Part shown: in pieces, positions 15,864-56,476 of the stretch
Layout of the letters: each line of letters opens with the position of its first letter
Position numbering within the stretch: position 1 is the first letter of the stretch
From: Myxococcales bacterium
GTDB taxonomy: Bacteria; Myxococcota_A; Polyangia; Polyangiales; GCA-016699535
Reading direction: 5' to 3'
Assembly: GCA_016699535.1 (NCBI GenBank)
Contig: CP064980.1
Coordinates: forward strand, 1,425,728-1,489,727
DNA length: 64,000 bases
The notes under the pieces: generated by a model
The model's input: the letters and a program-made list of their open reading frames with translations, nothing else
What the model was told of the DNA's origin: nothing
Databases searched by the model: none
Made by a program: the position numbers and the translations under genes

Positions 15864-18304
15864 ATGCGGTATTTTCTGTCATGTTTAATTCTGCCCATGA
15901 ATCAAGCACGCGGATACCTGCTGTTGATGTTCTTTTTTGCTGTATCAGCATGCGGGCGGCTGGGATACGACTCCGTCAACACACAGAGCTTGCTGCTTGA
16001 TTCGGACCAAGACGGTGTTCCAGATAGCGAAGAGCTTTTTGGCGATAGCGATGGCGATGGCTTAGCGAACTTCCTCGATGATGACGATGATGGCGACAGT
16101 TTGCCAACGGCGTTTGAAGTCAGTGAAGAAGCAAAAGCAGGCGGTGATGTCGATGGGGATGGTACGGTGGCTTATCTCGATACCGATTCCGATGGCGATG
16201 GGATTTTAGATTCCGAAGAGCTGGGCGATGATTTGGACGGCGATGGTCTGCCCAACTTTCTAGATACCGACAGCGACGGGGATGGCATCCCTGATAGTGA
16301 CGATGCCGACACTTTTTGTGCCGATGGTCGAAAAGATTTTAGTGAAAGCGATGTGGATTGCGGTGGTGCAGGCTGCTCGGGCTGCGCCGATGAAAAAAGC
16401 TGCAGCGTCAATACGGATTGTCAATCGATGGAATGTGGTTCAACAGGCACCTGCATTGCTACGTCGTGTAGCGATGGGCAAAAAGAGTGGGGATGAAACA
16501 GATGTGGATTGTGGTGGCTCGAGCTGTAGTGCGTGCGCGAATGGCCTAAGCTGTAATGCCGGCAATGATTGTGCATCCGGCGTGTGCACGGGCAACATCT
16601 GCCAGGTTGGTAGCTGCAGCGATGCTGTTGCAAACCAAGACGAAACGGATGTGGACTGCGGAGGATCGTCATGTAGTGCATGCACCGATGGGGCTGGTTG
16701 CCTTGCTGGATCAGATTGCAGCTCGGGAGTATGCACGGGCAACATCTGTCAAGCGGCAACCTGCACGGATACAATACAAAACCAAGATGAGACGGACACC
16801 GATTGTGGTGGCTTGAGCTGCAGCGCTTGCGGCACGGGGCAAAGTTGTGTGCTAGCGGCAGATTGCCAATCGAATGTGCACGGGCACCATCTGTCAGCTC
16901 GCGACCTGCGCTGATGGCGTGCTGAATCAAGATGAAACCGACACCGATTGCGGTGGAGCAAGCTGCGCAGCATGTGGTGATGGACTTAGCTGTCTTGCGC
17001 CGGGGGATTGCACTTCGGGCGTTTGCACGGGCACCATCTGCCAAGTAGCGACTTGCTCCGATAGCATACAAAACCAAGACGAGACTGGTGTGGATTGCGG
17101 GGGGGTGAGCTGTCCTGCATGTGGAGGCCCCACAATCACCCAACTCGTGTCTGGATCCGGCCATGTATGCGTCCTTCTAAGTAGTGGAAATGTACGTTGT
17201 TGGGGGCAGGGATTGTCAGGCAGGCTTGGCTATGGAAACCTCAACAACATTGGAGACGATGAGACGCCGGCTTCGGCCGGAGACGTCGACGTTGGTGGCA
17301 CCGTAATTCAGATTACCGCCGGAGGAGCTCATACCTGTGCTCTTCTGGACACTGGAAATGTTCGCTGTTGGGGCTACGCCGCACAGGGACAACTTGGCTA
17401 CGCTAATAGTCAAGACATCGGAGACAATGAACTGCCGGCCTCTGCCGGAGACGTCAACGTTGGTGGCACCGTTGTACAAATCTCCGCCGGAAGGTTTCAT
17501 ACTTGCGCGAGACTTGATACCGGAGCAGTTCGTTGCTGGGGCGAAGGCAATTTTGGGCAACTCGGATATGGTAACACCGCACGCATTGGTGACAACGAAA
17601 CGCCAGCATCCGCCGGGGATGTTGACGTCGGGGGCACTGTTTCTGAGATTAGTGCTGGCTCTTCCAATACTTGCGCTAGGTTGAGCACTGGAACAGTGCG
17701 GTGTTGGGGATACGGAGCAAGTGGTTCCCTCGGTTATGGTAACACGAACAACATTGGCGACAATGAAACCCCAGCATTCGCGGGAGACGTTACCGTTGGG
17801 ACCACCGTTAGCCAAGTCGTTGTCGGCCAGTATACCTGTGTAGTGACGAGTAGCAATAGCGTGCGCTGTTGGGGCGCTAGCGGCTTAGGGCAACTTGGGT
17901 ACCCCGGCGCGACACTCATCGGCGACGACGAAACCCCAGCATCGGTAGGAGATGTTACCGTCGGTAGCAGCGTAACAGAAGTAAGGGCAGGTCTTTACCA
18001 CACATGTGCGGTCACGACCACTGGAACTGTGAGGTGTTGGGGTCGAGGAAACGTGGGGCAACTTGGTTACGGAAACACGAACAACATTGGAGACGACGAA
18101 ACCCCCGCCTCAGCAGGCGACGTAAACGTCGGAGGGACTGTTACGCAAGTTGCTGTTGGTGGCCTTTCCAGCTGTGTCTTGCTTGATACCGGAAACGTTC
18201 GTTGTTGGGGAGACGGCAGTCTTGGAACACTCGGCTACGGAAACACGAACACCCTTGGAGACGACGAAACTCCGGCCTCAGCGGGTGATGTAACAGTGTT
18301 CTAG
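15864..18304 (+). pseudogene. Lipoprotein with thrombospondin-type-3-like Ca-binding repeats, Cys-rich repeats and an RCC1-like beta-propeller. Paralog of 50470..53322, disrupted by two frameshifts.
   Basis: Three overlapping ORFs (15864..16496, 16282..16914, 16874..18304) in frames 0/1/2 are collinear with the intact 962-aa paralog. The breaks lie at the A5 run 16480-16484 and near 16873-16880. The start could alternatively be 15897. Confidence 0.75.
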
Positions 18305-47826: not shown

Positions 47827-50007
47827 ATGAAAACTTCGCTACTTCGTTTAGTCATTGGTATTAGCTTTTTGACTATCAGCATAAACTGCGGCCGAATCGG
47901 CTTCGATGCTGTGGCGCAAGACGCCGGAGTTGACAGCTCGGGTTCCGATAGCAATAGCCCTGCAAGTTGCTCTGACAACCTAAAAAATGCCGCGGAAACC
48001 GATATCGACTGCGGTGGTGGAAGCTGTGCAGCTTGCAATGTTGATCAGCAATGCGTTCTAAACAGTGACTGTCTAACTCAAGTATGCAGTGCAAACCGTT
48101 GTGTAGCAGTTAGCGCAACCTGTTCTGATGGGGTGCTCAATCAAGACGAGAGTGATGTCGACTGTGGTGGAAGCTGTGGACCCAACTGCAGCGATGGACA
48201 GGACTGCTCTCAAGCAACGGATTGCGTATCACTTGTGTGCTCGGGGCAGGCGTGCCAGGCGGCAACCTGTTCTGATGGGGTGCTCAATCAAGACGAGAGT
48301 GATGTCGACTGTGGTGGAAGCTGTGGACCCAATTGCAGCGATGGACAGGACTGCTCTCAAGCAACGGATTGCGTATCACTCGTGTGCTCGGGGCAGGCGT
48401 GCCAGGCGGCAACCTGTTCTGATGGGGTGCTCAATCAAGACGAGAGTGATGTCGACTGTGGTGGAAGCTGTGGACCCAATTGCGTATTTGGTAGTGGTTG
48501 TCTTTCAAACGGCGATTGCATTTCTAACGTCTGTACGATCAACATCTGCCAAGCCTTAACCTTTTACTTGGATTCTGATGGCGATGGTTATGGTGACCTC
48601 AGTAATCCAACTCAAGCCGACACCCTGCCGGCAGGCTATGCCAACAATAGTAGCGATTGCAATGATGGCGACAACGGTATCCATCCAGGCGCAGCAGAAC
48701 TGTGCGATGGAAGTGATAACGATTGCAATGTCGGCACCCTTGACGGCTCGGATCAATGTGCTGCAAATGAAAGCTGCGATGGCAGCAACTGTATTGCCCT
48801 TGCCGCAGATTGGGTGCGTGGCCTCAATGTCGATAACCAAGATATTCCAGCCGATGTTACTGAGCTTGCCGATGGAACTCTTGTTACGATTGGAACACTC
48901 GACTCGACGGAACCCTATCTTGCTCTTTGGGCACTTAATAGTGCCGGTAATGAGATGTGGAAAATGCAGTATGATACTGCGTTAACCGATCAGGGGAAAA
49001 GCATTTCTCCTGATAGTACTGGTGGATTCGCAGTGGCCGGACAGTCGCTTGTTGTTAGCGGATCGGACATGGACATTTATGTGGCCAAAGTCGATAACTC
49101 CCGTAATACCTTGTGGGCCAATTACTACGGGAGTGTTGCCTATGAAACCGAGCCGGAAGTCTTTCAAATGTCCACGGGTAATATTATTATAGCTTTTAGG
49201 ACCACTTCATATGGTGCAGGCGTGTCATGGGATTCGATTGTTGCCGCACTTGATAGCTCAGGCAATGTGCTATGGACAGTACAAATAGGAACTCCTGGTC
49301 GAGAAACAATTTACGGATTGACTGAGATCAGTACGGGCGACGTGATCATTGTTGGTTCTACAGACGGAGTAGGCGCAGGAGGACTTGATATTTTGCTTGC
49401 CTCGCTGAATCCAACTGGAGCGGTTAACTGGATCGAACTGATCGGAGATACGAGTTCTGATGTAGGTTATAATATTGATGCCCTGCCAGGGGGTGGATTT
49501 ATCATTGGAGGAATGGTCACATTTGGGGCAAGCCGCTATTTTGTTGCCAGTGTTGATAGTTCCGGGGCATTCACTTGGTCCAAGCACTACACGACAGCTA
49601 TTATTAACGATATTGTTATTCGTGACGATGGCAATATCAGCACTTTTGGCTATACGACGAGTGCTGCCCACGTCCTTACCGTTGACTCCGCGGGCACTCC
49701 CTTGTGGTATCGGCGTTTGTCACAGGGTTTTGCCAACTCGATTTTGGGAGCGTTGACAGACACCCAAGATGGCGCGTTGGTCGCAAGCCTTTGGGGTACA
49801 GGTCGAGACTTTACACTATGGAAGCAAATTGATTCGGGCGCTACTGTATGCGGGACATCGACCACTACAATAACCGAAACCGTAATTTCACCAACGCCCG
49901 TTGACGCTTCTGCTCTTGTAAGTATTTCAAGTCCATTGCTCGAGACCAATCCTACCACCGGTTTAGTAAACACTTCCCTTGGAACCTACTCAGCAACCTG
50001 CAACTAG
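47827..50007 (+). CDS. Lipoprotein with Cys-rich repeats (including a near-perfect tandem triplication), a putative metal-binding motif and an SBBP-type beta-propeller
   Basis: ATG at 47827. [29 protein letters not shown]. 49-aa repeats [60 protein letters not shown]...[24 protein letters not shown]. The C-terminal repeats fit the beta-propeller SBBP pattern. Confidence 0.85.
48121..48483 (+). repeat. 147-bp near-perfect tandem repeat, about 2.5 copies, in frame within the 47827..50007 CDS
   Basis: Copies start at 48121, 48268 and 48415. Only two substitutions were seen between the full copies (CCCAACTGC/CCCAATTGC, CACTTGTG/CACTCGTG). Confidence 0.9.
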
Positions 50008-50469: not shown

Positions 50470-53322
50470 ATGATAAAAACTACCATCTCCATTCTGACGT
50501 TTCTTTTGATGGCAACTCTCCTTTCAGCATGCGGTCGTATCGGTTTCGACGCTGTAGACACTCAAAGTCTTCAAGTTGATTCCGATAACGATTCCGTCTT
50601 GGACAGTGCAGAGCTTGCGGAAGACACCGATGGAGACGGTATCCTGAACTTCTTGGACAATGATGACGATGGCGACCGAATCTTAACCGCTATCGAAATC
50701 ATTCAAGAGCAGGATAATGCTGATGGTGATGAAGATGGTAGACCTGCTTATCTTGACACTGATTCTGACGGCGATGGTTTGCTTGATATTGACGAAGGTC
50801 AAAGTGATCTCGATGCTGACGGAATCCCAAACTATCTCGATGTCGACTCCGATGGTGACCAAATCAGTGATTCCATCGATGCCGATACTTATTGTAGCGA
50901 TGGAATACGCAATTTTAACGAAAGTGATGTCGATTGCGGTGGTTTGGCATGTCTACCGTGCAGTGAAGGATCCTACTGCCTGTTTCCATTCGATTGCAGT
51001 TCTGGGATCTGCACCGGAAATACTTGCACTACATCCAATTGCTCCGATGGCCTAATAAACCAAGATGAGACCGATATCGATTGCGGTGGCTCAACCTGCC
51101 CGGCGTGTACGGATGGGGCTACTTGCGACTCGGGTTCCGATTGCAGTTCTGGGACATGCACCGGAAATATTTGCACTACATCAAACTGCTCCGATGGTTT
51201 AATGAACCAAGACGAAACAGATGTAGACTGCGGCGGAAGTAGCTGCAGTGCATGCTCCGATGGTCTGAGCTGTACAGTAGCAGGGGACTGCACATCGGGA
51301 GTATGCACGGGAAACATCTGTCAAGCAGCAACATGCTCAGATAGCACTTGGAACCAAGACGAGACGGATGTGGACTGTGGGGGCTCGACGTGTAGCACTT
51401 GTGCGGATGGTCTGAGTTGCACCGCTGGTGGCGATTGCGGCTCTGGAGTGTGCACAGGCAACGTCTGCCAAGTGCCAACCTGTACCGATACAGTGCAAAA
51501 CTTTGATGAAACAGACGTGGACTGCGGCGGATCGACCTGCAGCGCATGCGCCGATGGTCTAAGTTGCGCAGCTGGTAGCGATTGCATTTCAAGTGTATGC
51601 ACAGGCAACATCTGCCAAGCGGCAACCTGTAGCGATAGCGTCAATAATCAAGACGAAACCGATGTGGACTGCGGCGGAAGCAGCTGCTCAGTGTGCACCG
51701 CAGGGCAAGGCTGCTCGGCTGGCAGCGATTGTGATTCAGGGGTTTGCAGCGGAAGCATTTGCCAAGCGCCCACGTGCAGTGACAGCGTGCAAAATTTTGA
51801 TGAGACGGATATCGATTGTGGCGGAACGATATGCGGCGCTTGCACAACGGGCCAAAGCTGCGGGGTTGGCGGTGACTGTGACTCTTCTGTGTGCACAGGC
51901 AACGTGTGTCAAGCAGCGACTTGCTCCGATGGTTTTTGGAACCAGGACGAAACGACGACTGATTGTGGCGGAAGCATTTGCTCGCCCTGTCCTCCGGGAG
52001 GTGGCTGCTCGGCTGGAAGCGATTGTGACTCCGGTGTGTGCACGGGCAACGTATGTCAAGCGCCGACTTGCTCCGATAGTGTGCAAAATCAAGATGAGAC
52101 GGGTGTGGATTGCGGGGGATCTATATGTGGTAGTTGTTCCAGTGGAACTGTTGTCGAAGTTTCGGCGGGAGCTAGCCATGTATGTGCGATCACGAATTCG
52201 TCCGCTGTACGATGCTGGGGATATAACGGTAGTGCTCAACTTGGATACGGACATACCAACAACATTGGTGATGATGAACCGGCATCTGCAGCCGGCGATG
52301 TCAGTGTTGGTGGCAACGTGATTCAAGTGAGCGCTGGTGGAGTGCACACTTGTGCTCTCCTTGATACTGGTACAGTGCGTTGTTGGGGAGCAAACAGTTT
52401 TGGACAACTTGGTTATGGTAATACCACGATTATCGGTGATGATGAACTGCCCTCTAGCGCTGGCGATGTAAATGTAGGCGGCACGGTGACGCAGATTGCT
52501 ACTGGATACCAACATACCTGCGCATTGCTAAGCACCGGCACGGTGCGGTGCTGGGGGTTGAACGCATGGGGACAACTTGGTTATGGTAATACCACGACTA
52601 TCGGCGATGATGAATTGCCCTCTAGCGCTGGTGATGTAAATGTGGGCGGCACGGTAACGCAGATTTCTTGTGGTCGCTACCACACCTGCGCTCTCCTTGA
52701 CACAGGAGCGGTACGTTGTTGGGGAGGAAATAATCATGGACAACTCGGTTATGGGAACACCAATACCATTGGCGACAATGAAACACCGGCTTCAGCTGGC
52801 GATGTTTCCGTAGGGGGAACGGTAACGCAAGTCAAGGCTTCGGAGACATTGTCTTGCGCGTTACTCGATATAGGAACGGTGCGGTGCTGGGGCTGGGGAT
52901 TTACTGGTCAGCTCGGTTATGGCAACACCAATAGCATTGGCGACAATGAAACACCGGCATCAGCAGGCGATGTTTCTGTTGGAGGAACAGTTAGCAGCAT
53001 CGATGTAGGTTCAGGTCATGTTTGTGCGCTTCTCGATACAGGCACAGTACGTTGCTGGGGGACTTCCGCAGACGCACAACTTGGCTATGGAAACAAGTTG
53101 GCCATCGGTGACAATGAACTACCCTCTAGCGCTGGTGATGTCACTATCGGTGGAACGGCAACCCAAGTAGTCGCTGGCTACATATTCAGCTGTGCATTGC
53201 TTGATACGGGAGCCTTACGTTGTTGGGGCTATGGAGGATACGGAACACTTGGTTATGGCAACATAAACATGGTTGGCGATAACGAAACGCCAGCATCCGT
53301 AGGCGATGTACCTCTTTTCTAA
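50470..53322 (+). CDS. Large lipoprotein: thrombospondin-type-3-like Ca-binding repeats, about 11 Cys-rich repeats and an RCC1-like beta-propeller
   Basis: ATG at 50470. [47 protein letters not shown]-type repeats. Repeated C[ST]D..NQDETD[VI]DCGGS.C..C..G..C....DC.SGVCTGN.CQ. Repeated VRCWG.N..GQLGYGNT..IGDDE.P.SAGDV.VGG.V.Q...G..HTCALL.TG. Confidence 0.85.
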   Translation: MIKTTISILTFLLMATLLSACGRIGFDAVDTQSLQVDSDNDSVLDSAELAEDTDGDGILNFLDNDDDGDRILTAIEIIQEQDNADGDEDGRPAYLDTDSDGDGLLDIDEGQSDLDADGIPNYLDVDSDGDQISDSIDADTYCSDGIRNFNESDVDCGGLACLPCSEGSYCLFPFDCSSGICTGNTCTTSNCSDGLINQDETDIDCGGSTCPACTDGATCDSGSDCSSGTCTGNICTTSNCSDGLMNQDETDVDCGGSSCSACSDGLSCTVAGDCTSGVCTGNICQAATCSDSTWNQDETDVDCGGSTCSTCADGLSCTAGGDCGSGVCTGNVCQVPTCTDTVQNFDETDVDCGGSTCSACADGLSCAAGSDCISSVCTGNICQAATCSDSVNNQDETDVDCGGSSCSVCTAGQGCSAGSDCDSGVCSGSICQAPTCSDSVQNFDETDIDCGGTICGACTTGQSCGVGGDCDSSVCTGNVCQAATCSDGFWNQDETTTDCGGSICSPCPPGGGCSAGSDCDSGVCTGNVCQAPTCSDSVQNQDETGVDCGGSICGSCSSGTVVEVSAGASHVCAITNSSAVRCWGYNGSAQLGYGHTNNIGDDEPASAAGDVSVGGNVIQVSAGGVHTCALLDTGTVRCWGANSFGQLGYGNTTIIGDDELPSSAGDVNVGGTVTQIATGYQHTCALLSTGTVRCWGLNAWGQLGYGNTTTIGDDELPSSAGDVNVGGTVTQISCGRYHTCALLDTGAVRCWGGNNHGQLGYGNTNTIGDNETPASAGDVSVGGTVTQVKASETLSCALLDIGTVRCWGWGFTGQLGYGNTNSIGDNETPASAGDVSVGGTVSSIDVGSGHVCALLDTGTVRCWGTSADAQLGYGNKLAIGDNELPSSAGDVTIGGTATQVVAGYIFSCALLDTGALRCWGYGGYGTLGYGNINMVGDNETPASVGDVPLF

Positions 53323-53440: not shown

Positions 53441-53960
53441 GCATAAGGATTCCAAAGGTAGTTTTTGAGTTCGGGAACAGTGTTGGCATCCACAAATTCC
53501 TTAATTTTCATGTGGCCACTGCAAGATGGGCACGCGCTCGCATCTATCTAGAACACAGTTGCCAGGAATTTGGCCCAGGGGTTTCTGCAGGGTCATCGCC
53601 CCACAAGTGGAGCTGCGCTCCGGGCTCTTCGTCCAGCAGACCTGGCACGACTTGACCGTGCTCTTTGGCATGAGCGGCCAGCACGCCGTGGTAGCGCAAA
53701 AGATGAGACCGCGGCGGCGGCACCAAGGCGCAGAGGCTGGTTGTCAAATCAAGCGGCTCAAACACCACCGCTTCGGTCCCGTCCGCCTATTGTCGCTTGA
53801 GTATATAGATGAGCTTGCCATAGCGATAGCGACGCAGGTGTTTGGTGGCCACAGGCGGCCTGGACAAGTAGGGGCACAATCGGGTGCGAGCACGCTTGTC
53901 TTGGGCATCGATGCGGCTGTCGGCAAACACGGAAAACCCAGCCACTTCGATACGTGGTGT
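53441..53960 (-). mobile_element. IS91/ISCR-family element remnant, the longest copy: 36-bp end, 3' flank and about 135 C-terminal codons of the transposase with an in-frame TAG
   Basis: The minus strand reads ...GFSVFADSRIDAQDKRARTRLCPYLSRPPVATKHL...LKRQ*ADGTEAVVFEPLD...LVPPPRSHLLRYHGVLAAHAKEHGQVVP...CSR*. This resembles the IS91-family C-terminus (RY..RPP..., LvPpPr.h..RyhGv.A). TAG at 53787-53789. Confidence 0.75.
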
Positions 53961-54088
53961 TGAGGAAATACCCAGCGGTACTGGCGCCATCTCCGCACCC
54001 AGTTGCCATCATCGACTGCATATCAAACAAAGTATTCTCGCCGAGAAATCAACTCGACTATTGGCTTCCGAGTGCTAAGGTAACTTAT

Positions 54089-56476
54089 GTGATTGATTTG
54101 CAAAAAACACTTGTTCGATTGACTCTGCTGATAGGCTTGTGTCTCAGTGTTTCGTGTGACGGACAAATCCCTAGACTGGGTCCGAGCTCGCCGGATGTTT
54201 CGTTGCCAGATGCTGACCCATTACCAACCGATGCCTCCATTGACGATCAAGACACGAACTATCCCATTATTGTGTATGATATCCGTCATTTTGCCAACAA
54301 GGGGCAAACCCCCTCTCTGGCTCTTGAGTATTTCGATCGCATGCTCACGCTTCAAACTCTGCAAGGCATCGTCAACCGCAATGTGCCGCGCTTGTATTTT
54401 GTTTACGTTCAGTTGCGTCGCGACGAAGGCACCATCAATGTGGATGAAAACTGGTTTTCTGAGCTTTGTGACCCGAGCTCAACTTTCGAATGCAGGTCTG
54501 ATTTTCAGGAACTTGATGGACGAGCCATTCTACGCTTTAAAGAAACCGACCAAAGCTCCGATGCAAGCTTGTCGATCGACGATCTGATTGCGAACTATTT
54601 TCTTGATGATCTTCAAGGCCTTGTCGTTTGGGATTCGCGCGTTCATGCGACCTCCCTGGCCGCTGCCAGCATCGCCGGCGCAACTTCTTCGCTTGCCGTT
54701 CGTTATTCGATGGACCCTAGCTCTTTGTATCAAAAGCTTGGGCACGCGCTTGCGTTGCCTGTCACCGAAGATTTATACGCCTTGGATTTTACACAACCCG
54801 GTATTCCGAACTACCCGGCTTTGGGCGACTTTGGACCTAAAAGCAACGTTTACCGCTGGCTAACCGAAACTTATATCAACACGGCCAAACTTGATACACG
54901 ACACGTGGCATGGTCGCTGGATTCTTTTTCAACAACCGTCACAAATGAGTCATGGCTCAACAACATGACCAGCCACATCAACTACTACGTCTCCAATAGA
55001 GCCATCATCGTTGATTTAGCCGTTCTGCAAGATTATACGCCCTGTGACGATCCTCTGGCTTCAATCAATTCGGATTGGCACACGGCCAATCATGTTCTAC
55101 AGGCTGCCAATCGAATCACAAGTGGACTTAAGTATGCTTATGGCTTTCCGCCTTGGCCTTACAAATACAGCAGTTGGAGAAACTGTGGTCTGTCCACAGA
55201 TAACCTTCCTCCCCCTTATGTCAGCGAACATCGGTTCGTCAATTTACTATCTAGCTATGGTTACACCAACGTCCTTGAAGCTGCCGAAAGTGGCGCTTCG
55301 GGTGACTCCATCGGCCAAATGCCTAACATGAGCTTCTTTTCCCATCTGAAAAACGATCAACACCACTACAATCTCAATGCTCAAGCGGTTGCGCCCGCAC
55401 AAGGAAGTAATGCAATCAATGGGGTGGTCTATCTCTTGGTCGCCATGGCCGACTATGAATCGGCGGGCCCCGCACATATTGCGCTGCAGGATTCAAAGAT
55501 TTTGAAGCAAAGCACAAGCCCAAGTTTCCCAGTGGCTTGGCTGATTAACCCCAACACTTTTGACCTTGCACCACAGCAATTGACGTTCATTTTAAGAACC
55601 AAAACCCAACACGACTATTTTGTTGGCGAAGCTGGTTACGGCTACTTTGATGCCAATCTTTTTTCAGAAAAGATAGCCATGGCACAGCTGGCTTCTCGAG
55701 CCTACGACCGTTACGGCTTAAGCATTACTGGTTTCACTATTTTCACACATAACATAGACCAAAAGGCCCTCCTGAGCCCCGAAGCACTTGACATGATGTC
55801 AGCTTTTAGCGGTGATGGCCTAGGCACCAGCCCCTCGGACGGCGATGGCGGAGATATCCGGATACAAAACCGTGTACCAATGATCAATGTCCGAGCCTAT
55901 TTTCATCCCGAGGATGATCCTGTCGTGGCTGTCCAACAGTTCCTCGCGCAACACACGTACCATGCGGGTGCGCCTAACTTTTGGATCGCACGATCGATCT
56001 TCATGGGTCGAGCTACAGTCCAAACCTATATCGACGAACTGAAAAGGCAAACGCCCGGTCGTGACTACCGGATTGTCGATCCCTACACTTTCTTTTATTT
56101 GCTTCGGCAATACCTGGGTTCCAACAACAACTATCGAGCCAGCTACCTGCAAGACACCTTTCCAAAAACGGTTAAGCCCAATCAGCTCGTGGCATTTAGT
56201 GTAACCATTCGGAACGATGGCTGGGATACTTGGCAAGCTAGTGGCGTCAATCCTTATGGCATAGGAGCTACCATCGACGGACAAAGCCCCTATCCCATCG
56301 CACAGCTACTGTCCCAAGACGTCGCTCCGTCCCAAAGCATCACCGTTGACTTGCAAATTCAAGCACCCTCAAGCCCCGGAATGCACGAATTGAAGATCGA
56401 TCTCAAAAAAGAAAACATCACCTGGTTCGAAAGCCAGCTTGATATACCCAGGTATATTCCCTTCACGGTCGAGTAA
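54089..56476 (+). CDS. Large lipoprotein, possibly a GxGYxYP-family glycoside-hydrolase-like protein with a C-terminal Ig-like (NBR1/CARDB-like) domain
   Basis: GTG at 54089 with AAGG 8 nt upstream. MIDLQKTLVRLTLLIGLCLSVSC lipobox. LQTLQGIVNRNVPRLYF and GEAGYGYFD resemble the GxGYxYP family. C-terminal VAFSVTIRNDGWDTW...ITVDLQIQAPSSPGMHELKIDL. Confidence 0.75.
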   Translation: MIDLQKTLVRLTLLIGLCLSVSCDGQIPRLGPSSPDVSLPDADPLPTDASIDDQDTNYPIIVYDIRHFANKGQTPSLALEYFDRMLTLQTLQGIVNRNVPRLYFVYVQLRRDEGTINVDENWFSELCDPSSTFECRSDFQELDGRAILRFKETDQSSDASLSIDDLIANYFLDDLQGLVVWDSRVHATSLAAASIAGATSSLAVRYSMDPSSLYQKLGHALALPVTEDLYALDFTQPGIPNYPALGDFGPKSNVYRWLTETYINTAKLDTRHVAWSLDSFSTTVTNESWLNNMTSHINYYVSNRAIIVDLAVLQDYTPCDDPLASINSDWHTANHVLQAANRITSGLKYAYGFPPWPYKYSSWRNCGLSTDNLPPPYVSEHRFVNLLSSYGYTNVLEAAESGASGDSIGQMPNMSFFSHLKNDQHHYNLNAQAVAPAQGSNAINGVVYLLVAMADYESAGPAHIALQDSKILKQSTSPSFPVAWLINPNTFDLAPQQLTFILRTKTQHDYFVGEAGYGYFDANLFSEKIAMAQLASRAYDRYGLSITGFTIFTHNIDQKALLSPEALDMMSAFSGDGLGTSPSDGDGGDIRIQNRVPMINVRAYFHPEDDPVVAVQQFLAQHTYHAGAPNFWIARSIFMGRATVQTYIDELKRQTPGRDYRIVDPYTFFYLLRQYLGSNNNYRASYLQDTFPKTVKPNQLVAFSVTIRNDGWDTWQASGVNPYGIGATIDGQSPYPIAQLLSQDVAPSQSITVDLQIQAPSSPGMHELKIDLKKENITWFESQLDIPRYIPFTVE

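Follow-up and report, generated by a model that had tools for sequence, protein, structure and literature searches.

Why do three lipoprotein genes with different C-terminal architectures start their mature products with the same few residues? The window, by which we mean the whole stretch of 64,000 nucleotides from a Myxococcales bacterium (contig CP064980.1) analysed here, raises this question at three places on its forward strand. The original prediction, made from the letters of this stretch, took the shared N-terminus to be a sorting, anchoring or processing signal. We followed the shared peptide, hereafter the tag, through the window, the 4.0-Mb genome in which the window lies (the source genome) and related genomes.

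Three tagged genes in the window

In all three genes, a signal peptide leads to a lipobox Cys followed by G-R-[IL]-G-[FY]-D, as originally read. The residues from the Cys onward are CGRIGFDAV in the genes starting at 50470 and 47827, and CGRLGYDSV in the gene starting at 15864. The features of the three genes are:

50470..50529, + strand: signal peptide of a 950-aa lipoprotein (MIKTTISILTFLLMATLLSA), lipobox LSA before the Cys; passes the strict lipoprotein regular expression
50530..50550, + strand: tag CGRIGFD, with the Cys codon at 50530 as mature position +1; DNA-pattern match at G000:1476257 and HMM match
50551..50889, + strand: acidic region 3′ of the tag, with thrombospondin-type-3-like (TSP3-like) Ca-binding repeats (DxDxDGxxD), read off the sequence
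50890..52137, + strand: nine 49-aa six-Cys modules, core NQDETD[VI]DCGG; regular-expression positions 151 to 543, period 49
52138..53322, + strand: RCC1-like seven-bladed propeller and stop codon; Pfam WD40_RLD 5e-69, RCC1_2 7e-62
47827..47886, + strand: signal peptide of a 726-aa lipoprotein, SIN before the Cys, with an atypical Asn at −1; from the sequence
47887..47907, + strand: tag CGRIGFD, Cys at 47887; DNA-pattern match at G000:1473614
47908..50007, + strand: short Ser/Asp-rich linker, four six-Cys modules, MopE-type motif and C-terminal SBBP/PQQ-like propeller
15864..15950, + strand: signal peptide of a broken RCC1 paralog (...GYLLLMFFFAVSA), VSA before the Cys
15951..15971, + strand: tag CGRLGYD, Cys at 15951; DNA-pattern match at G000:1441678
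15972..18304, + strand: rest of the broken paralog, comprising TSP3-like repeats, six Cys modules and an RCC1 propeller; Pfam and regular expression

The six-Cys repeats described for all three genes were recovered: the 50470 gene has nine, spaced exactly 49 aa apart, the 47827 gene four, and the 15864 gene six over its broken length. Those of the 50470 gene have no Pfam match at E<0.01, and a weak NCBIfam BamM-region match over 50551..50889 in this gene is due only to its TSP3-like repeats. In the 47827 gene, two of the four modules are nearly identical 49-aa copies. The C-terminal ends were borne out in part: Pfam finds the RCC1 propellers of the 50470 and 15864 genes and the MopE-type metal-binding motif of the 47827 gene (Cu-binding_MopE, 4.6e-8), while the SBBP-type propeller assigned to the latter gives only a weak signal (PQQ_2 0.0079, NCBIfam LipL53-type SBBP 1.3e-4), both values being below cut-offs. 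The 15864 and 50470 genes are clear paralogs over their whole length, the former being broken into three reading frames (15864-16496, 16282-16914 and 16874-18304).

The prediction depended on signal peptidase II cutting at the motif Cys, and the sequences put the predicted site there, with canonical lipobox statistics over 142 unique instances of the tag and one LspA gene (PF01252; single match in the source genome, E 8e-34, G000:2591537-2592037). Among these instances, position −3 is Leu, Val or Ala in 72%, position −2 is Ala, Val, Thr, Ile or Leu, and position −1 is Gly (61%), Ala (28%) or Ser (8%), together 97%. Position −1 is His or Asn in four tagged genes of the source genome, a choice that LspA substrates rarely show and that was seen in this genome only. 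Downstream of the Cys, position +2 is Gly, +3 Arg, +4 Ile or Leu and +5 Gly; the first acidic residue is the Asp or Glu at +7, and in many instances the next residue after the tag is Pro. Judged by the type II signal-peptide pattern (basic n-region, hydrophobic h-region and lipobox [LVI][ASTVI][GAS]-C), the tagged proteins are predicted lipoproteins; the 50470 and 15864 genes conform to the lipobox, and the 47827 gene departs from it in its Asn at −1.

Occurrence of the tag

A six-frame protein scan of the source genome for the exact motif, C-G-R-[IL]-G-[FY]-D, returned 19 tags and two one-residue variants, and a hydrophobic signal peptide directly precedes every one of these. A degenerate DNA pattern, written for C-G-R-[ILF..]-G-[FY]-[DE], matched the source genome 18 times against none for a reversed-pattern control (~0.05-0.1 expected), and matched 41 related genomes 98 times against nine control matches. 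Signal-peptide or lipobox context was present in 58 of the 60 pattern matches that were fetched. In all, ~20 predicted lipoproteins in the source genome and hundreds in related uncultured myxobacteria have the tag. With controls near zero and codons varying at all synonymous sites, chance and a DNA or RNA element were both ruled out. Every synonymous codon is found at each position of the tag, so selection acts on the peptide.

The prediction itself had proposed a pattern search of this and related genomes, and had allowed that the motif might belong to three close paralogs alone. The search found 19-21 genes in the source genome and, in relatives from two orders, tags in front of at least 15 unrelated cargo families, which rules out a three-paralog artefact; around the motif, signal peptides, linkers and synonymous codon positions have fully diverged. 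The tag stays intact while its surroundings diverge. In an alignment of 86 tagged proteins, mean column identity is 7% and only M1 and the C, G, R and G of the tag are invariant; for the logo set, whose instances were chosen with the motif itself, the constancy of these four tag residues is in part built in. Of 555 crude lipoprotein candidates, 11 had a match score of 6/6 and 540 scored 2/6 or less, and a relaxed regular expression (S/A, K and W/N substitutions) found no further variants in signal-peptide context. The tag is all-or-none between lipoproteins, with a bimodal score distribution and no decay series.

Two further features of the source genome were observed. Most of its tagged proteins have the six-Cys module in common, and one 5′ end recurs at another place in the genome as a 790-bp copy with 97% identity.

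Taxonomically, the tag is limited to the class Polyangia (Myxococcota), where it occurs in Haliangiales/Kofleriaceae and in some uncultured Polyangiales. Most Polyangia families are without it, as are the Sorangium and Polyangium isolates. In other classes of the phylum, signal-peptide context was found in none of the 20 matches checked, which are chance matches; those in other phyla were likewise rejected as chance. Between genomes the tag is all-or-none, with 18 copies in one genome and none in another of the same family. An HMM of positions −15 to +14 gave E values down to 1e-11 in tag-bearing genomes, whereas its best value in eight tag-free genomes, including a family member of the 18-copy genome, was 0.047, over the signal-peptide part only. 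Through the named genomes at the loci and the LolA relatives of a Kofleriaceae MAG, only MAGs and no cultured tag-bearing host were found. The tag marks a discrete subclass of predicted Polyangia lipoproteins.

What the tag may do

Behind the tag lies a linker with a median length of 27 residues, of which 71% are Gly, Asp, Ala, Ser, Pro or Thr and 0.5% Lys. AlphaFold2, given the first 60 mature residues and a 68-row alignment, predicted no secondary structure (pLDDT 57). Because the tag has no AlphaFold2 fold and leads into an acidic, disordered linker of low complexity, it is a signal-like peptide rather than a structural domain, in agreement with the original prediction. The cargo after the linker belongs to at least 15 unrelated domain families of extracellular type (86 tagged proteins), with LamG_3 in 12 proteins, RCC1 in six and PD40 in six, alongside FG-GAP, beta-helix, C-type lectin, SBBP, FGE-sulfatase, NosD, Lcl_C, cadherin-like and CBM9 domains; tagged proteins are 260-970 aa long. 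Among the 120 closest RCC1-domain homologues, conversely, just two are tagged; the tag is independent of the cargo domain.

The prediction had not recognised the motif as a described signal, and our searches agree. It has no Pfam or NCBIfam model: searches of whole proteins and isolated N-termini at E<=10 gave only sub-threshold LptM/LPAM signal-peptide matches. A text search for strings of the motif found no mention in ~8.4 million papers and preprints.

We consider it somewhat probable that the heptapeptide C-G-R-[I/L/F]-G-[F/Y]-[D/E] is a lineage- and sequence-specific, cargo-independent sorting or recognition tag read behind the lipobox, and that it probably serves surface display. Judged by the kind of cargo and the long linkers, tagged proteins would most probably end up in the matrix or on the outward side of the outer membrane. 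The precursor would be lipidated by Lgt and then cut by the single LspA before the tag Cys; a specific protein partner would read the lipidated N-terminal heptapeptide and divert tagged lipoproteins from the default Lol route, leaving lectin- or adhesin-like cargo to hang outside the cell on a flexible stalk. In Polyangia, such a tag would play the part that the lipoprotein export signal (LES) has in Bacteroidota, or that the lipoprotein motif of T2SS substrates has elsewhere, although it is specific in sequence where these are compositional.

More tentatively, the tag may be the recognition element of an undiscovered, dedicated Polyangia lipoprotein export or processing system, whose machinery would have been lost together with the tag in tag-free lineages. 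Searches for a partner found no co-variation. Of 44 Polyangia genomes with or without the tag, not one had GspN (PF01203) above its cut-off, and the source genome had no match; a GspL (PF05134) search gave weak cross-matches only. LolA is present in all 44 irrespective of the tag, its copy number being unrelated to the tag and its copy in the source genome single; LspA does not co-vary with the tag either. An all-against-all comparison of the ORFs around the tagged loci (+-9 kb of the 19 loci of the source genome, and 53 foreign loci of <=8 kb) found no recurrent non-tagged neighbour family.

These searches also bear on an unlikely alternative, in which the tag is a docking peptide: at its final site the lipidated heptapeptide would bind a single envelope partner or lipid shared by all tagged proteins, for example by insertion into or beside an outer-membrane barrel, and so gather them at the same platform. 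The strict, sequence-specific conservation with two invariant Gly residues points to a defined binding pocket, and the all-or-none presence per genome would also suit such docking, as would a weak likeness to the NCBIfam LptM model, on which the signal-peptide/CG region scores 14-18 bits and stays under the 27.7-bit cut-off. However, the LptM match ends at C-G and spans no more than the generic signal peptide (1-22 of the 31 model positions), and no candidate partner adjoins the tagged genes. Docking and routing are in any case not mutually exclusive.

Retention in the inner membrane by Lol avoidance appears improbable. Here, Arg at +3 and Asp at +7, flanked by the hydrophobic Ile and Phe, would hold the protein in place while the linker extends the cargo into the periplasm. 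Known Lol-avoidance signals do lie at +2 to +4 and differ by lineage (PMC3222651, PMC12802150), and T2SS surface export likewise begins with inner-membrane retention. Yet these known signals take one to three residues rather than an invariant heptapeptide, and most Polyangia families manage without the tag. Lectin, adhesin and propeller domains make up the cargo, along with Cys-rich modules as extracellular proteins typically have them, whereas transporter-binding, MFP and other inner-membrane housekeeping classes account for none of the 86 tagged proteins.

Still less probable is that the tag is a processing or shedding site, with a dedicated protease cutting in or just behind it, for example at the frequent Asp-Pro, and freeing the cargo to the matrix or medium. 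The Pro that often directly follows the tag, the position of the tag between anchor and flexible linker, and the release of M. xanthus lipoproteins into the matrix depending on residue +7 (PMC3222651) would fit such cleavage, but no protease gene recurs beside tagged genes, and conservation that begins at the Cys itself suits a reader of the lipidated end more than it suits a cut further inside.

It is very unlikely, and we disfavour it, that the leader and first residues have no function of their own and are an N-terminal module which a single, expanding paralog family passes on by inheritance or recombination: the shared six-Cys module, the full-length paralogy of the 15864 and 50470 genes and the 790-bp copy with 97% identity would suit this, but in relatives the tag precedes domains of at least 15 unrelated families and it occurs in two orders, its scores are bimodal with no decay series, and its seven residues are intact between unalignable signal peptides and linkers, with codons saturated by synonymous change.

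Returning to the sorting tag, the heptapeptide looks like an undescribed address label. It provides a simple sequence rule that predicts a probable surface-protein class of adhesins, lectins and propellers in uncultured predatory or social myxobacteria, which may act in contact with prey or substrate. Its sharp presence/absence profile can be used to seek the cognate machinery, and as a portable seven-residue element it is a candidate targeting tag. If a dedicated export system exists, tag counts per genome would form a phylogenetic profile leading to a new route for surface lipoproteins in diderms; if the peptide only docks or retains, it would still be among the most sequence-specific post-lipobox signals described.

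Comparison with known systems

The surface placement of lipoproteins in diderms is partly solved, and for a few lineages only: Neisseria uses Slam, Bacteroidota use LES/Lpt, and Acinetobacter and Klebsiella use T2SS/GspN. Sorting rules known from Myxococcota concern single residues only. The conserved lipidated N-terminus of LptM inserts into or alongside the outer-membrane barrel LptD.

LptM (YifL; PF13627, NF047847) resembles the tag in its conserved C-G-x-x-G from the lipidated Cys, and acts by binding the LptD/E translocon. It is, in contrast, one small housekeeping protein per genome, compared with ~20 large modular tagged proteins. Membership of the LptM family would call for a score above the 27.7-bit cut-off, coverage of the mature region and a protein of ~60-70 aa; the tagged proteins reach 14-18 bits and lie outside the family.

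The LES of Bacteroidota is a post-lipobox motif that directs surface export (Lauber et al. 2016, PMC5080379), by a route now linked to LptZ/Lpt (PMC13692018). Like the tag, it is a short motif right after the lipidated Cys, is lineage-restricted and independent of cargo fold, and marks only some lipoproteins, whose cargo serves extracellular binding or is enzymatic. The LES belongs to another phylum and has a loose negative composition (a stretch at +2 to +5 of K-(D/E)2-X or SDDDD type) that the tag lacks, the latter being a heptapeptide of set sequence in which G, R and G never vary and one residue is aromatic; export has been demonstrated for the LES and is a prediction for the tag.

T2SS/GspN-dependent lipoproteins such as InvL and PulA require a P2′-P8′ post-lipobox motif for surface localisation, and such a motif directs export of T2SS lipoproteins in Acinetobacter (PMC12802150); the myxobacterial T2SS moves lipid-anchored proteins to the surface (PMC11980579). 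The position of this motif is that of the tag. Its P2′-P4′ residues are GGG, ND(N/D) or a Gly/Asp-rich run, whereas the tag has G-R-[IL], and with GspN below cut-off the tagged proteins fall outside this class by both marks.

Within the phylum, M. xanthus lipoproteins are sorted by residues +2 and +7, where Lys at +2 specifies the inner membrane and Ala at +7 the matrix, as in FibA (PMC3222651); E. coli Lol avoidance uses Asp at +2 (PMC3222651, PMC12802150). As is proposed for the tag, position-specific residues after the Cys set the destination in M. xanthus; +7 matters among them, and the tag has a conserved Asp or Glu there. The M. xanthus rules are single-residue preferences rather than a heptapeptide, and the tag invariably has Gly at +2, not the Lys of retention.

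The MYXO-CTERM/myxosortase system (TIGR03901, NF040914; PMC11980579) is another Myxococcota case, a sorting tag, as is proposed for the heptapeptide, around an invariant, presumably lipidated Cys that adjoins a disordered region and occurs on dozens of unrelated surface proteins per genome. The MYXO-CTERM has three parts and lies at the C-terminus, where its Cys motif is joined by a transmembrane helix and an Arg-rich tail, unlike the N-terminal tag behind its lipobox; the C-termini of the window proteins, ...TYSATCN and ...GDVPLF, show neither a transmembrane helix nor a basic tail. All 44 genomes, tagged or not, have the myxosortase core, with no complementary distribution, so the MYXO-CTERM and heptapeptide systems coexist and neither replaces the other.

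Three tagged genes and their class in the genome

The original prediction described three lipoprotein genes with a common motif after the lipobox, C-G-R-[IL]-G-[FY]-D-[AS]-V, followed by six-Cys repeats and different C-terminal ends. The tag, as the term is used here, is C-G-R-[I/L/F]-G-[F/Y]-[D/E], starting at the lipobox Cys (+1). The genes, their N-termini and this downstream architecture were all borne out, as follows (genes named by their window start position):

50470-53322: 950-aa product, N-terminus [29 protein letters not shown], nine six-Cys modules, RCC1 propeller at the C-terminal end
47827-50007: 726-aa product, N-terminus [29 protein letters not shown], four six-Cys modules, C-terminal end with a metal-binding motif of the MopE type and a weak signal for an SBBP/PQQ-like propeller
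15864-18304: RCC1 paralog, N-terminus ...LLLMFFFAVSA-CGRLGYDSV, six six-Cys modules, RCC1 propeller at the C-terminal end, reading broken over three frames (15864-16496, 16282-16914 and 16874-18304)

The modules have the core NQDETD[VI]DCGG and an exact 49-aa period. Two of the four modules in the 47827 gene (window 48121-48483) are nearly identical 49-aa copies, pointing to a very recent in-frame tandem duplication. A 790-bp copy of the 5' end of the 15864 gene, 97% identical and also broken, lies 659 kb away (genome coordinates 2100706-2101491). The 840-aa product of the next gene after the 50470 gene (window 53954-56476) starts with a lipobox-like sequence that lacks the tag (LIGLCLSVS-CDGQ), so that tagged and untagged lipoprotein genes are neighbours here.

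A six-frame scan of the window's own genome (single contig, 4.02 Mb, 51% G+C) found 19 exact C-G-R-[ILVF]-G-[FY]-[DE] sites, every one of them ending a hydrophobic stretch 14-40 residues behind a start codon. When the pattern was relaxed to accept S or A in place of either Gly, K in place of R, W in place of F/Y and N in place of D/E, three further matches appeared, none in a clear signal-peptide context. We then scored 555 crude lipoprotein-like N-termini, false positives included, at six positions after the Cys. The score was bimodal, with 11 N-termini matching at 6/6, four at 3-4/6 (the sole 4/6 case looks spurious) and 540 at no more than 2/6, and no other non-low-complexity motif recurred after the Cys in this set. 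A profile search yielded two one-residue variants, CGRLGHD (a decayed copy) and CGRINYD. Taken together, the scans, the bimodal score and the profile variants indicate that the tag marks a discrete class of roughly 20 proteins, which make up a few per cent of the lipoproteins predicted.

Frameshifts or truncations seem to affect some eight or nine of the 21 tagged loci, where translation enters an out-of-frame reading of the Cys-rich repeats or stops abruptly (tag Cys at genome coordinates 405873, 422361, 1441678, 1887315, 2100843, 2155481, 2475498, 3288218 and 3427124). The genome is small and rich in IS elements, and the tagged family appears to be in decay, or variable, within it. The one LspA gene (2591537-2592037) lies ~4 kb downstream of a tagged gene at 2585847 (558 aa, without Cys-rich modules), a proximity that is probably coincidental.

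Distribution among related genomes

Judged by PriA, whose relatives reach at most 60% identity, the organism falls within Myxococcota, among Polyangiales/Sandaracinaceae-like MAGs. Across 41 related genomes, a back-translated DNA pattern matched 98 times and its reversed control 9 times. The matches were spread very unevenly (18, 9, 7, 5 and so on per genome, with none in 19 genomes), and 58 of 60 fetched from nine of these genomes immediately followed a signal peptide. When 301 genomes from across the phylum were sampled, only the window's class showed an excess over control, in several families of the window's order and in one family belonging to a second order (13 and 8 matches). Outside the class there were ~33 matches against ~27 for the control, and none of the 20 fetched had signal-peptide context.

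A search for CGRIGFDP through 185,579 species genomes gave 100 loci. Of the 80 matches listed, 53 had signal-peptide context. These came almost entirely from MAGs labelled Kofleriaceae, Haliangiales, Polyangiales, 'Myxococcales' or 'Deltaproteobacteria', and a 4.9-kb contig binned as Acidobacteriota was the only clear exception; the 27 out of context (Nocardia, Burkholderia, Planctomycetes and others) are the number expected by chance. Within the named genomes, two Kofleriaceae MAGs carry 11 tags each, a 'Haliangium sp.' MAG 20 and a Haliangiales MAG 8; no tag was found in Sorangium, Polyangium, Labilithrix, Nannocystis or most Sandaracinaceae, and none of the named genomes reached was a cultured tag-bearing strain.

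An HMM covering positions -15 to +14 gave many matches in tag-bearing genomes (best E ~1e-8 to 1e-11), in contrast with a best E of 0.047, over the signal-peptide part only, in eight tag-free genomes, one of them from the same family as the 18-copy genome. With the uneven counts, this contrast shows that the distribution is all-or-none between genomes too. Two genomes of one family, G032 and G015, are similar in size and completeness and hold 18 tags (~27 by HMM) versus 0, making them an ideal pair for finding the cognate machinery through gene-content comparison. Near-variants open the metagenomic RCC1 lipoproteins P0029 (CGRWGFD), P0030 (CGRGRFD) and P0022 (CGRVLIE), showing some drift of the tag that exact-pattern searches miss.

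Tag, linker and cargo

Across 142 unique instances, the tag follows a canonical lipobox with L/V/A at -3, A/V/T/I/L at -2, and G (61%), A (28%) or S (8%) at -1. Four tagged genes of the window's genome have Asn or His at -1 (SIN-C, CIH-C, LVH-C and LMN-C; the Asn of the 47827 gene is at window 47884-47886), residues absent from this position in more than 120 instances from relatives; this would mean a tolerant LspA, a role of the tag in recognition, or a failure to process these copies. Pro is frequent at +8, also in a set not selected for it.

The heptapeptide fused to the lipobox is under strong peptide-level constraint. Each tag position uses every synonymous codon, which places selection at the level of the peptide rather than of a DNA or RNA element. 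When 86 complete tagged proteins from relatives were aligned, only Met1, C, G, R and G were invariant, at a mean column identity of 7%; since the instances were gathered with the motif itself, this invariance is partly by construction, and independent evidence of sharpness comes from the relaxed-pattern scan, the scoring of 555 N-termini and the HMM in tag-free genomes. Behind the tag is a disordered acidic stalk, poor in hydrophobic residues and 27 residues long at the median (232 at most), composed to 71% of G/D/A/S/P/T, with 15% Asp and 0.5% Lys. Structure prediction, proposed originally as a check, gave an AlphaFold2 model of the first 60 mature residues without secondary structure (68-sequence alignment, mean pLDDT 57, pTM 0.16).

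The cargo is extracellular-type. Domains on the 86 proteins include Laminin_G_3 (12 proteins), RCC1 (6), PD40 (6), FG-GAP, right-handed beta-helix/NosD, C-type lectin, SBBP, FGE-sulfatase, MopE, Lcl_C, GLUG, cadherin-like, CarboxypepD_reg, TSP3 and CBM9, and the tagged proteins included no transporter-binding proteins, membrane-fusion proteins, Pal/OmpA or Bam/Lpt lipoproteins. In the window's genome, six-Cys modules are combined with RCC1, FG-GAP-, Kelch- and SBBP-like propellers (the non-RCC1 types being our reading of the sequences) or a beta-helix. When the RCC1 part of the 50470 protein was used as query, only two of its 120 closest homologues carried the tag, one being the query itself; one more has CGRWGFD, and the rest begin with a different lipobox or an ordinary signal peptide. 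Given this diversity and the rarity of tagged RCC1 homologues, tag and cargo are independent modules.

Proposed function and comparison with known signals

A shared sorting, anchoring or processing signal had been suggested for these proteins. With modest confidence, we favour a sorting or recognition tag. Lgt and LspA would process the precursor, and a specific partner would then read the lipidated heptapeptide, routing tagged proteins away from the default Lol destination. Within this sorting proposal the cell surface or matrix is the most probable destination, although we hold this part less firmly. Alternatively, the heptapeptide could dock a common resident partner, which we regard as unlikely, or serve inner-membrane retention, which appears slightly less likely again; a shedding site is improbable. 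Functionless shared ancestry is very improbable because of the cargo diversity, the bimodal score and the spread over two orders.

Searches for GspN, LolA, myxosortase and neighbouring genes found no reader of the tag. GspN, the family that in Acinetobacter and Klebsiella mediates T2SS-dependent export of lipoproteins to the surface (PMC12802150), was absent from all 44 Polyangia genomes tested, and a GspL search gave weak cross-matches only. LolA occurs in all 44, is single-copy in the window's genome and is unrelated to the tag; the myxosortase core is likewise universal among the 44, which means that the tag is no substitute for MYXO-CTERM. No gene family recurred beside tagged genes (19 own and 53 foreign loci).

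Other signals of this kind are already known, and the tag lacks the defining sequence feature of each. Escherichia coli uses Asp at +2. Further post-lipobox signals are the Bacteroidota LES (PMC5080379), the GGG / ND(N/D) motif of T2SS lipoproteins (PMC12802150), and Lys at +2 and Ala at +7 in M. xanthus (PMC3222651). Unlike these, the tag is defined by a fixed heptapeptide rather than by a bias in charge or composition, and its motif strings were found in no paper of the literature searched. The only database echo was a sub-threshold match of the signal-peptide part to the LptM model; LptM, a conserved lipidated N-terminal peptide that binds a partner, offers a useful functional analogy.
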